A stretch of DNA of 63,612 nucleotides, counting the filler, from Octopus bimaculoides (taxonomy: Eukaryota), in the NCBI RefSeq assembly GCF_001194135.2. It is 7 parts of 7 records of this genome, joined end to end, with 100 filler letters (N's around TTAATTAATTAA, not from the genome) between each part and the next. Parts side by side here need not be neighbours in the genome. Positions count along the whole stretch, not along the records: positions 1 to 25,552 come from NC_069000.1; positions 25,653 to 39,623 come from NC_068982.1; positions 39,724 to 54,593 come from NC_069005.1; positions 54,694 to 59,179 come from NC_069009.1; 3 more parts are not named here. The stretch is one strand, 5' to 3'. A program made the position numbers and the translations under genes. This document shows positions 1,912 to 57,465 of this stretch, piece by piece; position 1 is the first letter of the stretch, and every line of letters begins with the position of its first letter. The notes below the pieces were generated by a model that saw only the letters and a list, made by a program, of their open reading frames with translations, was not told where the DNA came from and did no database searches.

Positions 1912-2130
1912 GACAACCAATTAATTGTTACATATTATATTTATAGATATATATATATACATATATACATTAATAGAAATACTAATATTTCTAAATCTCT
2001 CTAAAGGAGGCTATGGCAGCAGTACTGGATATTAATAGTTATCGCCAAGCTAATATGTGACACACAAACCTGTGTCCATTACAACCTTCAAACAGAAGAG
2101 GTCAGCAGTTTCCCTTTGTTGGTTCAACAT

Positions 2131-2171
2131 CCACAAACTAGTTTCGGGGTGATTGCCCCTTATCAATGTGG
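2131..2171 (-). ncRNA. Minimal type I hammerhead ribozyme, decayed core
   Basis: Minus: CCACA-TTGATAA-GGGG-caatca-CCCC-GAAA-CTAG-TT-TGTGG; all three stems pair, stem III is the ACTAGT palindrome; C3>U, G8>A and position 17=U. Confidence 0.7.
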
Positions 2172-2370
2172 AGTAGTCGAATCCAGCAGGTGTCAATGCT
2201 GACTGTCTGTTTGATAACTATTAATATATATATATATATATTTGCAATAATAAAAAGAATAACAAATCAGTGCTCAGAATAGCAATAGCAGAAATAATCA
2301 CATACTGGACCAGGTCGGTAACATAAGGAAAAAATAATGATAAAGAAAGTGAAGTTCAAATCCTAGCAAT

Positions 2371-3003
2371 TTAGTTATATTCTAATACTTTCCATGTCAC
2401 AAATTGACGACCGCAATCTGTTGTTATCTTTACAGGTGTTCTGAAACAAGAAATCCATCCTGTGACTAATGCTTGTTCCACAGTTTGAGAAGAGATGTCT
2501 GTGAGTGGAATAACTTCTGGCCAGTGTAAAAAATGATCAATACAAGTTAATAGAAACGTGTAGCCCTGACTTACAGGCCAAGGTCCTATTATATCAATAT
2601 GTATGTGATGGAATCGTGCATCTGGAGTGGAGAAAGTACCTAACTGTGCACGGATATGTTTACGTACCTTGGATTTTTGACAATCGACACAGGTATGAGT
2701 CCAATTAGTTATGTCTTGACGCATGTTCGGCCAAACGAAATGAGCTGTAATAAGCTTCAATGTTATACCAGGATGTGAAACATTGTGTAGTGCTGAGAAA
2801 ACAATATGGCGGTGCTTTTCAGGAACTAAAGGGCGAGGTTTACCAGAAGAAAAATAGCAAAGGATCTGTTTGTTTGATGTCGCAACTGGGAAAAATTGGA
2901 GGTCAAAAGGAATTAGTTCTGGTTGTTGTATATTATTCAAATCAACAGATGGTTGATCTTCCAACATTTCATGCAAGTTAATTTCTGCAGTTGAAAATAA
3001 CAT
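2371..3003 (-). pseudogene. Gypsy integrase fragment (HHCC plus start of catalytic core), truncated
   Basis: ORF track protein with ALHNVSHPG, CVDCQKSK, HIDIIGP, TTDCGRQF. Confidence 0.88.
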
Positions 3004-3005
3004 GT

Positions 3006-4122
3006 TTACATGTAAATGGGATAAAGAATCTGCAACAATGTCTCAGAACCTGGAATATATCGTATATCACTTGTGAATTGTGAAATGTAATCCAAATGTC
3101 GAATGGCTCTTGGAAAAAATTTATCTACCTTGCAGTGTAAAGTAAAAGATAACAGCTTATGGTCCGTAAATATTGTGAAGTTTCTCCCTTCCAAAATGTG
3201 TTGGAAGTGTTTAACTGAGAGGTAAATAGCTAACAGTTCACAACTGAATGCGCTATATTTAGTTTCAGCTGGTTTTAACTGCTTAGAGAAAAACACCAGA
3301 GTTTGCCATTTGCCATGGTGAAGTTGTTGCCAATTTTGGACGCATCGACTACAAGAGAAATTTTGGCATCAGGAAAGGGGTGAGTTAACATGGAGACATG
3401 AGAGTTTTTGCTTAATATCATCGAAGGCTTGTATTTCAGCAGGAGTTAAAGTAATCTTTTCTGTTCTATTCTTGTGGAGTCGCAGTAATTTATTGAGAGA
3501 GTATAAAGTTTTAGCACAATGAGGTAGGAAACATCAATAAAAATTAGTTAATCCAATAAATTGTTTGAGCTGTCTTAATGAAACAGGAACTGGAATTTTC
3601 ACAATAGCTTCAACTGTTTCTGGCAAAGGCCTAGTTCCATCCTTATCAATGGTGTGTCCAAGGAAAGTGAGAGAAGGTACACTGAAAATACATTTGGTAG
3701 CATTGATACGAATTTTGTAGAGAAAACCTTTCAAAAAGTTGCTTCAAATGAATCTCATGTTCTTTCTCGAAAGAATTAGTGATGAGAATATCTTCAATAT
3801 AGATGTAGACGAAATCTAATCTGCGTATTACTTCATCAATGAAATGTTGAAAAGTACTGGCAGCATTCCTTAACCCAAAGGGCATGGTAAGAAATTCAAA
3901 TGACCCGAATGGAGTTGCAATAGCCGTTTTCGGAATATCATCTGGGTTTACAGGAATTTGATGGTATGCCCAGATCAAATCTATTTTTGAGAAAATAGTG
4001 CAACCATGCAGAGAAGATGCAAAATCCTGAATATGAGGTATTGTATATTTATCTGGAATGGTAATAGCGTTGAGTCGTCTATAGTCACTAGTAGGTCGAA
4101 AATCACCAGATTTCTTTCTCAC
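3006..4122 (-). pseudogene. Gypsy reverse transcriptase and RNase H, frameshifted
   Basis: ORFs 3646-4122, 3534-3734 and 3006-3296 carry RT motifs (YIED in place of YIDD) and RNase H motifs. Confidence 0.88.
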
Positions 4123-55229: not shown

Positions 55230-56441
55230 ATGGAAAATGAGTCGAGTGAAATCAAGATTAAATGTGAAACAGAGGCTAAAAATATTGACTTTCCTGATGA
55301 TGTAAAAAATAAGAAAAGGAAAACATTACATCACTGTGATATCTGTGGTAAATCATTTTCTCAAAATAGCAAACTGACTAAACATAAATCTATTCATTCA
55401 GGAGAGAAGCCATATCACTGTGACATCTGTGATAAATCATTTTCACAAAAGGACTATTTAACTACTCATCAACGTATTCATACAGGAGAAAAACCTTATC
55501 ACTGCGACATCTGTGATAAGTCGTTCTCTCAAAGTGTTCACTTAACTAAACACACACGCATTCACACGGGGGAAAAACCATATTTCTGTGATATCTGTGA
55601 TAAATCATTTGCTGAGAACGGTACCTTAACTAGACATAAACGTATTCATACAGGAGAAAAACCATATCACTGCGATATCTGTAGTAAATCATTTTCTCAG
55701 AAAGATAACCTAGTTACTCACCAACGCATTCATACCGGAGAAAAGCCATATTGTTGTGACATTTGTGACAAATCATTCTCTCAAAGTGTGCACTTAACAA
55801 AACATAAATATATTCATACAGGAGGAAAACTATACTTCTGCGATATTTGTGATAAATCATTCACTGAAAATAGTTCCTTAAAAAGACATATCCGCATTCA
55901 TACAGGTGATAAACCATATCACTGTGATATCTGTTTCAGATCATTTTCCGAGAATCATAACTTAACTATTCACAAACGCAGTCACACAGGAGAGAAACCG
56001 TATCCTTGTGACATCTGTGGTAAATCATTCTCGGACACTGGTCATTTAGCTAGACATGAACGTATTCATACTGGAGACAAACCACACAAATGCAACATAT
56101 GTGGTAAATCATTTTCTGAAAATGGAGTCTTAACAAGACATATCCGCGTTCATACTGGTGAGAAGCCATATCAGTGTGACATCTGTAGTAAGTCATTCTC
56201 TCATGGACATGCCTTAACTACTCACAAGCGCATTCATACAGGAGAGAAACCATATCACTGCGATATCTGTGGCAAATCATTTTCTGAAACTGGACATTTA
56301 ACTAGGCACAAACGCATTCATACAGGACTAAACTTATATCACTGTGGTATCTGTGGTAAATCATTTTCTGAAAAAAGCCACTTCACTGAACATGTTGCTA
56401 TTCATACAGAGCAGGAGCTATATCAAAATATAGGGTCATAA
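55230..56441 (+). CDS. C2H2 zinc-finger protein, 13 tandem fingers, ~403 aa, no recognisable N-terminal effector domain
   Basis: Intact ORF with 13 C-X2-C-X12-H-X3-H fingers and TGEKP-type linkers; first ATG at 55230; likely exon acceptor ...tatttcag at 54887. Confidence 0.93.
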   Translation: MENESSEIKIKCETEAKNIDFPDDVKNKKRKTLHHCDICGKSFSQNSKLTKHKSIHSGEKPYHCDICDKSFSQKDYLTTHQRIHTGEKPYHCDICDKSFSQSVHLTKHTRIHTGEKPYFCDICDKSFAENGTLTRHKRIHTGEKPYHCDICSKSFSQKDNLVTHQRIHTGEKPYCCDICDKSFSQSVHLTKHKYIHTGGKLYFCDICDKSFTENSSLKRHIRIHTGDKPYHCDICFRSFSENHNLTIHKRSHTGEKPYPCDICGKSFSDTGHLARHERIHTGDKPHKCNICGKSFSENGVLTRHIRVHTGEKPYQCDICSKSFSHGHALTTHKRIHTGEKPYHCDICGKSFSETGHLTRHKRIHTGLNLYHCGICGKSFSEKSHFTEHVAIHTEQELYQNIGS

Positions 56442-56559
56442 TGCATACAGAACAACTAGTACTGCATGCATGACCCTCATTTTTCTTCATTCCATTATGA
56501 CCCTACATTTTGTAGAGTAAATTCTTACCTTTTTCTCATTGGTATATAACTAATGATTG

Positions 56560-57160
56560 TATCATCGTTTAACGTCCGCTTTCCATGCTATCATGGGTCG
56601 GACGATTTGACTGAGGACTGGTGAAACCAGATGGTTACACTAGGCTCCAATCTGATTTGGCAGAGTTTCTACAGCTGGATGCCCTTCCTAACGCCAACCA
56701 CTCAGAGAGTGTAGTGGGTGCTTTTACGTGTCACCCGCACGAAGGCCAGTCAGGCAGTACTGGAAACAACCACGTTCAAAATGGTGCATTTTATGTGCCA
56801 CCCGCACAAGAGCCAGTCCAGGGGCACTGGCAACGATCTCGCTCGTTCATTGTAGGCAAACTAATGGACAGAATAAGAAAATAATTCAGGAGAATAATTG
56901 ACCTATCTCTCAACTACCATCGTCATCGTCGTTGTTTAACGTCCACTTTCCATGCTAGCATGGGTCGGACGATTTGGCTGAGGACTGGTGAAACCAGATG
57001 GCTACACCAGGCTCCANNNNNNNNNNNNNNNNNNNNNNNNNNNNNNNNNNNNNNNNNNNNNNNNNNNNNNNNNNNNNNNNNNNNNNNNNNNNNNNNNNNN
57101 NNNNNNNNNNNNNNNNCGGCCACGCTCAAAATGGTGCATCTCATGTGCCACCCGCACATA
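56560..57160 (-). mobile_element. Two tandem RTE 3'-end copies (56560-56850 and 56920-57160)
   Basis: Both begin (plus strand) TCATCGTTTAACGTCC.CTTTCCATGCTA.CATGGGTCGGACG, the reverse complement of 1-164. Confidence 0.8.
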
Positions 57161-57239
57161 TATATAAATATATATATATATATAAAGAAAAATATATATA
57201 TAAATAAATATAAATATATATATATATAAAGTGAAGTAT

Positions 57240-57465
57240 ATTTGCCACTTAAATGTGGCTGACCCCTAAGGGTGGATGTTACTGTTGCTTTTAGCCCCAG
57301 GAGAACTACTCCTCCAGTTGGCTATCGACACACATCTGTGTCCTGTCTGTCTTTCTCATCGAAGGTCGGCGATTGTCGTACGCTGAAGAAGGGAAATTAC
57401 CCTGAAACTCGAGTCCGTACGTATCGCTGATCAAGATGGGAAAGATAACTTCCCTTGGCAAATAT
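57240..57465 (+). mobile_element. Short structured element carrying an intact hammerhead ribozyme
   Basis: Head homologous to 30310-30415; small hairpins GCCAC/GTGGC, GGAG/CTCC, GACAC/GTGTC; long hairpin 57350-57445. Confidence 0.65.
57377..57421 (+). ncRNA. Minimal type I hammerhead ribozyme, all core nucleotides intact; predicted cleavage after C57415
   Basis: CGTACG-CTGAAGA-AGGG-aaatta-CCCT-GAAA-CTCGAG-TC-CGTACG: 6-bp stem I, 4-bp stem II, palindromic stem III (ACTCGAGT), GUC triplet. Confidence 0.85.

Follow-up and report, generated by a model that had tools for sequence, protein, structure and literature searches.

Support for a dispersed family of short hammerhead repeats in Octopus bimaculoides, with the ribozyme motif in both orientations relative to a shared head

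The DNA analysed here, which we call the window, comprises 63,612 nucleotides from Octopus bimaculoides (RefSeq assembly GCF_001194135.2; seven parts of seven records, joined by filler letters), and it is gappy, microsatellite-rich animal DNA with a C2H2 zinc-finger open reading frame (ORF), short interspersed elements (SINEs) and retroelement debris. Our subject is three loci within it, copy A (57.4 kb), copy B (30.2 kb) and copy C (2.1 kb), which share a head motif ending in a GACAC-loop-GTGTC(C) hairpin, followed by a long irregular hairpin with hammerhead ribozyme sequences at its apex. An original prediction, made from the sequence alone, had proposed that these loci are one family whose hammerhead changes strand. 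The coordinates it gave for the three GACAC hairpins all hold, and the comparisons described below support the view that A, B and C constitute one family of dispersed short non-coding repeats, in which the hammerhead occurs in both orientations relative to the head.

In copy A the head (57255-57343, + strand) consists of helices ending in the GACAC-loop-GTGTCC hairpin at 57327-57343, and the long hairpin behind it (57349-57448, +) favours the + strand in folding (-45.4 vs -30.5 kcal/mol, with 4 vs 1 G-U pairs). The apex holds a minimal type I hammerhead (57383-57415, +) on the same strand as the head, as predicted, with a palindromic stem III, a GUC site, zero core mismatches, a stem I of 6 bp and a stem II of 4 bp. 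Upstream of the head lies a segment (57237-57247, +) with an exact inverted copy of 11 bp at 57456-57466; the latter is part of a right end (57456-57474, -) whose similarity to C's upstream segment ranks in the top 0.43% of background, and whose polarity with respect to the hammerhead is that of C. On the minus strand, copy A can be read as an upstream segment, no head, a hairpin of C-type polarity and then an inverted head; it may equally be a one-off composite or a typical member of a subfamily with the hammerhead in head sense. A SINE copy (57477-57580, -), cut short, abuts A's hairpin end and points into the strand opposite the head.

Copy B is read on the minus strand, where a head of three helices (30317-30405, -; z -4.08) ends in the GACAC hairpin 30332-30317, next to a long hairpin (30141-30311, -) whose arms show 6 differing positions and 2 gaps in 45 aligned columns. 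Both hammerhead orientations had been predicted at this apex as a perfect 26-bp inverted duplication. The duplication is indeed perfect (30197-30222 / 30235-30260) and is the longest non-simple perfect inverted repeat with a spacer below 60 nt in the window, but neither of its hammerhead copies is a complete ribozyme: the copy opposite the head (30232-30260, +) has the CUGAUGA core, stem II and GAAA intact but no 3' strand of stem I, which is retained in the head-strand copy (30187-30222, -), whose core in turn is missing its first letters (CUG). The two copies also differ in their flanks. Since the 26 bp are perfect and the arms have diverged, the apex of B was duplicated later and locally, the duplication being younger than the arms (P 0.006-0.024 for a single event), and an origin of B by one whole fold-back is rejected by the same comparison. 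On parsimony, B's ancestral orientation leans towards head sense. A terminal inverted repeat is absent from B (best 6 bp). A SINE copy (29935-30104, +) abuts B's hairpin end and points into the strand opposite the head, the SINE that flanks A and B having only 5 matches in the window, and the end of B's right arm contains an imperfect direct repeat of ~27-31 bp by eye (30106-30160; Tandem Repeats Finder reports none), possibly a tail or target duplication.

Copy C opens with an upstream segment (1973-2057, +) whose boundary at 1973 is fixed against AT-rich flanks and which includes a near-palindrome (1975-1992). It continues through a point of internal deletion at a shared ATG (2054-2057, +) into a head remnant, the GACAC-loop-GTGTCC hairpin at 2059-2077 (+), and the long hairpin (2090-2212, without assigned strand), and it ends in an exact 15-bp inverted copy (2213-2227, -) of 2029-2043, followed by (TA)n. 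Its minimal type I hammerhead (2136-2166, -; core UUGAUAA, stem I 6 bp, stem II 4 bp) lies on the strand opposite the head, again as predicted. Two features to the left of C deserve mention. A further hammerhead-like motif (1854-1905, +), with a stem II of 11 bp, the core CUGACGA, one GAAA mismatch and a weakened stem I, is found ~70 bp to the left of the fixed end of C, on the other strand from C's hammerhead, within a region (1845-1915) that folds with a z of -5.56. A broken fragment at 1279-1545 (-) gives an Atlas lead of 0.93 to GIY-YIG and no Pfam match; judged by a motif, it resembles the C-terminus of the GIY-YIG endonuclease of Penelope-like elements (PLEs).

The GACAC-loop-GTGTC pattern matches four times in the window, with 0.34 matches expected. 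Three of these hairpins belong to the family (2059-2076 (+), 30318-30332 and 57327-57342), and the fourth, a GACAC-loop-GTGTCC hairpin at 6897-6915, lies in an unrelated context with no hammerhead in a relaxed scan, so that the GACAC hairpin by itself is not diagnostic. The same relaxed scan scores copy A at 27 and copy C at 17, the top score over 12 shuffles being 15. Under the minimal type I definition (C3U4G5A6N7G8A9 ... GAAA ... UH, with stems I and II), A matches exactly and C matches as a U3:A8 variant, while both B copies fail; a short palindromic stem III of the dimer type can be read from the sequence in A and C. Folding of the three units is well beyond that of shuffles (z -4.96, -14.82 and -3.67). 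The heads of A and B are 80% identical over 56 nt (E 7e-6), and the start of the left arm is identical in 20 of 34 positions between B and the majority letters of C's relatives (p 0.0005), whereas left-arm homology is weak between A and C (p 0.02-0.03) and absent between A and B (p 0.53). No hammerhead family was matched by the Rfam models in the window, which returned only microsatellite and hairpin look-alikes. Head patterns searched in metagenome and viral contigs gave chance matches only (bacterial and phage DNA), and a tighter pattern found nothing in genome or viral contigs.

To place copy C among its relatives, its unit (1970-2226) was compared with public sequencing data, C being the only one of the three copies so compared. 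Four of 24 candidate runs were used: a raw RNA run and three DNA contig sets, two from organism A (X1 and X4) and one from organism B. The account that follows covers 15 of 20 joints and 24 of 366 loose ends in the DNA, together with 24 of 3,220 contig pieces, namely the longest and some at joints; the long pieces listed favour collinear ones, and several X1 and X4 records represent one locus. Relatives were matched at an 80% cut-off, and rough copy numbers were obtained as summed depth divided by single-contig depth, summed depth being strictly no true copy number.

From the window alone, the head of C is only suggestive: its score is equalled by 12 of 4484 background windows, and for the part upstream of its hairpin the figure is 10%, which is not significant. 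The relatives provide what the window does not. Their loose ends are concentrated to the left and right of 2054-2057, and 8 RNA reads that span this point contain extra letters there. Compared by eye with B's head, these letters agree in 25 of 34 and in 22 of 30 columns, and two words drawn from them occur in the window at B's head alone, with 0.00 matches expected. By eye again, the inner and outer head helices of the relatives differ from B's by paired changes. The extra letters thus represent the 5' two-thirds of a B-type head, and C is a family member that deleted most of its own. The head originally predicted for C therefore survives as a sign of family membership, through its relatives, but the stretch proposed to contain it, 2005-2058, is mostly the segment upstream of the head, and we have rejected the idea that it is a degenerate head, given the deletion revealed by the relatives' loose ends.

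The relatives also bear on C's ribozyme. The cleavage-site letter at 2136 makes a GUU in C and a GUC in 96% of the relatives' depth (X1, X4). Changes of A>G occur at 13, 12, 12 and 13 places per run, all among the listed rows, and none falls at 2166, so that U3 is fixed in C's relatives; at 2161 there is no well-supported change among the listed rows, two T>C places per organism A run lying outside the list. Variation in stem I affects 2132 and its pairing partner 2170 (26% and 54% in X1). These letters reject a decayed core: the predicted U3:A8 variant ribozyme of C is conserved rather than decayed. An apparent G-U bias in C's arms was likewise dropped, since with the majority letters of the subfamily it disappears and the two strands fold about equally well (-52.7 vs -52.4 kcal/mol), so that this bias is uninformative as to strand.

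As judged from these contigs, orientation looks fixed in C's subfamily. In both species, 23 of the 24 listed pieces begin at or before 2071 and continue on one strand past 2166, the depth over the apex shows no dip in the DNA runs, and no joint or major loose end at the apex borders is found among the listed DNA rows. Nor do the listed rows include a head-sense contig among the C-like relatives, or a contig with two switches flanking the apex, as a two-ended inversion would give. The hairpin with its apex is present in roughly 276-441 copies in organism A and 76-143 in organism B. The upstream segment is the part with the highest copy number (roughly 11,600-13,200 in organism A), and depth falls rightwards from roughly 13,000 there to 2,000 at the GACAC hairpin, 300 in the arms and 30 at the far end. 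On the left, the boundary in C's subfamily is fixed at 1972-1973; two left boundaries are seen in all, 1973 and 1983, and the TA-rich flanks mask any target-site duplication. A longer variant at 1972 has an extension, including a small hairpin, shared by 76 RNA reads and 19-26 contigs per DNA run.

Joints to the opposite strand account for 8 of the 15 listed, each in one contig per run and at single-copy depth. Two of them, 2114-2190 (X1, X4) and 2108-2195 (X4), coincide with paired arm positions to within one base and have head sequence on both sides, which makes them fold-backs; a third, 2150-2188 (X1, X4), duplicates half the apex in a manner similar to copy B. Several joints fuse the variable right end to an inverted upstream segment, as seen over 15 bp in C and 11 bp in A; the same fusion occurs at 2169 in 8 RNA reads, and the junctions of such inverted ends vary between 2157, 2169, 2194 and 2212. 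Also found among the relatives are head-less joints (2053-2100 and 2053-2128) and, among the listed rows, two partial tandems, 2176-1973 and 2190-1973, each in a single contig. The proposal that the arms allow the apex to invert is thus borne out to the extent that strand switches do occur at paired arm positions, but the products are fold-back or head-to-head joins, not two-ended inversions.

The RNA run, which looks unstranded, with similar counts on both strands, yielded 226 matching reads out of 12.9 million, 95% of which continue into unlike sequence. In this one run, no pile-up of read starts or ends was seen over the predicted cleavage site at a depth of ~30, and none of the 226 reads contains a circular RNA joint, the library being from one tissue set and made without circle enrichment. 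These reads count neither for nor against cleavage. Head-to-tail tandem units with a hammerhead are likewise absent from the window, where the units are single, and the relatives offer only the single-contig partial tandems.

What mode of spread could have produced these copies? In C's subfamily, one end is fixed at TA-rich DNA, the other varies and partial tandems occur, which matches the insertions of PLEs; published accounts of these describe truncation at the 5' end, partial tandems, truncated copies in inverted position, head-to-head junctions and (TA)n targets (PMC8557442; PMC3846280). A purified PLE protein cleaves and extends both target strands, and insertion without a hammerhead is possible (PMC11167929); metazoan PLE hammerheads include single minimal motifs, opposite-strand pairs and U3-A8 cores (PMC4209133). 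An inverted truncated copy at the variable end, in head-to-head arrangement, is present in A, in C and in the opposite-strand joints, and absent in B. On balance we favour, with moderate confidence, the reading that the family consists of non-autonomous derivatives of PLE ends, and that orientations other than C's come from single-copy fold-back or head-to-head joins; the positions of the joints lend support to template switching guided by the arms, as a putative mechanism.

Under this PLE reading, a PLE protein would nick TA-rich DNA, and reverse transcription would start at the fixed end (1973 in C). In C's subfamily, the copied RNA would correspond to the hammerhead strand and carry the ribozyme close to its 3' end, an arrangement shared with the pseudo-LTRs (pseudo-long terminal repeats) of PLEs, and the head of the original prediction would be a 3' module of this RNA, read on the other strand. 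The complementary DNA (cDNA) would terminate at differing positions, frequently at the hairpin base, and would then join a second, inverted cDNA or prime itself through the complementary arms. Copy B could then have arisen by a local template switch that duplicated its apex, and copy A by fusion of a truncated head to an inverted unit of hairpin plus hammerhead whose own head was lost.

Several observations weigh against this scheme. The linkage of the GIY-YIG-like fragment near C to the unit is only a candidate one, and no autonomous PLE is tied to the unit. Two of the three window copies depart from the C pattern, when 2-3 hairpin joints per 300-400 copies would predict fewer. Short contigs undercount rearrangements, and the long pieces listed are collinear by selection. 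Copy A needs the extra deletion of one head, and the depth gradient may derive in part from subfamily divergence combined with the 80% cut-off. Finally, in A, in B and in the relatives of C the wobble pairs of the head's first helix fall, by eye, on the head strand, the internal arm transitions of B create G-U on the head strand in 3 of 3 cases, and B would require two switches from a head-sense ancestor, compared to three events from an ancestor of the opposite sense.

Some of these points would find a natural place if the same PLE-type mobility had been accompanied by one ancestral inversion of the apex, giving rise to an amplified head-sense subfamily (A, and probably B's ancestor) and an anti-head one (C), both of which would have preserved an intact ribozyme. 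We regard this as possible, but clearly less probable than the preceding reading. It draws on the intact core of A, whose hairpin favours the head strand, on the simpler derivation of B from a head-sense ancestor, on the two copies unlike C and on the wobble pairs of the head; the left-arm homology between B and C would place any such inversion inside the arms. It is opposed by A's right end, which matches the C upstream segment in C's polarity, by the arm comparisons, in which homology is absent between A and B and weak between A and C, and by the lack of a head-sense contig among the listed C-like relatives. The more specific idea that amplified subfamilies carry intact hammerheads on opposite strands (C3:G8 in A, on the head strand; U3:A8 in C, on the opposite one), with both polarities folded and processed, we likewise consider tentative.

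One could also speculate that the units are DNA-level elements, similar to miniature inverted-repeat transposable elements (MITEs) or Helentrons, with terminal inverted repeats and an incidental hammerhead. The 11- and 15-bp inverted repeats beside TA with which A and C end, and the near-palindrome at C's left end, are in line with this, but the inverted ends vary in length and junction between copies, B has none, and the partial tandems and one-sided copy gradient fit reverse transcription; we consider this explanation improbable.

Still less probable, in our estimate, is the recurrent flip-flop originally proposed, in which the arms act as invertible repeats and the apex turns back and forth within a subfamily, switching the strand that is cleaved. 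The two joints at paired arm positions and the B-like joint are what such a process might leave behind, but every one is a single contig, with head on both sides where it falls at paired arm positions. Moreover, the listed rows hold no two-switch contig, the DNA shows neither a depth dip nor a major loose end at the apex borders, there is no evident recombinase or conserved crossover site, and the three copies have different arms; among C's relatives one orientation dominates and the switch points vary. That C and B are chance look-alikes or assembly artefacts, as the fourth GACAC hairpin without a hammerhead, the gappy assembly and the dependence of B's sequence on the assembly alone might suggest, is the least credible account of all and largely refuted for C, since the C unit recurs in many contigs from three DNA runs and two species as well as in RNA reads, the two words from its relatives match B's head only, and the B copies differ in their flanks.

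Returning to the PLE reading, the resemblance to described systems is close in some respects and partial in others. Like the metazoan PLE hammerheads of PMC4209133, those here have a minimal type I core with a palindromic stem III and occur as single dispersed motifs; that study also reports opposite-strand pairs 100-700 bp apart and U3-A8 covariation in Schistosoma, both with likenesses here. The present motifs differ in their shorter stem II (4 bp; those of Schistosoma have 7-8 bp), in a stem I prolonged into a hairpin of ~50 bp, in the conserved three-helix head beside it and in lacking an attached ORF. As in the PLE insertions of PMC8557442, PMC3846280 and PMC11167929, there is one fixed and one variable end, with partial tandems, an inverted short copy at the variable end, TA-rich targets and a palindrome at the fixed end, and the PLE hammerhead is dispensable for insertion in vitro (PMC11167929). 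The units differ from those insertions in being ~250-330 bp long and non-coding, in having some joins at positions that pair between the arms of an internal hairpin, and in that no 30-40-bp tail or target-site duplication is established, the TA-rich flanks masking duplications. Animal non-LTR retrozymes, as described in PMC7229834 and 10.64898/2026.07.22.740005, are also short non-coding repeats with type I hammerheads and a similar unit size; an origin from PLE ends has been proposed for them, and dispersed monomers occur. In contrast to retrozymes, the window has no tandem arrays and the listed rows only two partial-tandem joints to 1973, and the one RNA run (226 reads) has neither a circular junction nor a pile-up at the cleavage site.

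No description of the family or of hammerhead orientation switching was found in the literature, with Repbase, Dfam and the supplements of PMC4209133 and PMC8557442 lying outside the search. The role of the hammerhead in PLEs and the identity of the template strand are presented as open questions in PMC3846280 and PMC11167929, and a high-copy family of 300 bases, whose three-helix head covaries, whose variant ribozyme is conserved and some of whose joins lie at paired arms, is a compact substrate for such questions. Were A a one-off composite, this would be an ordinary repeat family, hitherto undescribed; were A instead representative of a subfamily, the polarity of the ribozyme would be exchangeable, which would be a real clue. 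Should subfamilies on opposite strands indeed exist, they would offer a natural test system, 300 bases long, for the proposed antisense-template, self-priming step of PLE replication.

The remaining features of the window are of a more general kind. ARAGORN reported 0 tRNA genes in the window, and so no tRNA-like SINE head, although it can miss tRNA heads that have decayed. Two other long palindromes, imperfect and lying outside simple repeats, at 20963-21071 and 43569-43730, scored no hammerhead core. To the right of copy C, at 2371-5222 (-), lie the broken frames of a Ty3/gypsy-like LTR retrotransposon, which by their motifs are protease, reverse transcriptase, RNase H and integrase-like. 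Seven sites (e.g. 25553-25652) consist of an identical arrangement of 44 N, a 12-base AT palindrome and 44 N, and are scaffolding or masking artefacts. The zinc-finger ORF, at 55161-56441 (+), is an open frame of 426 amino acids with tandem C2H2 fingers.

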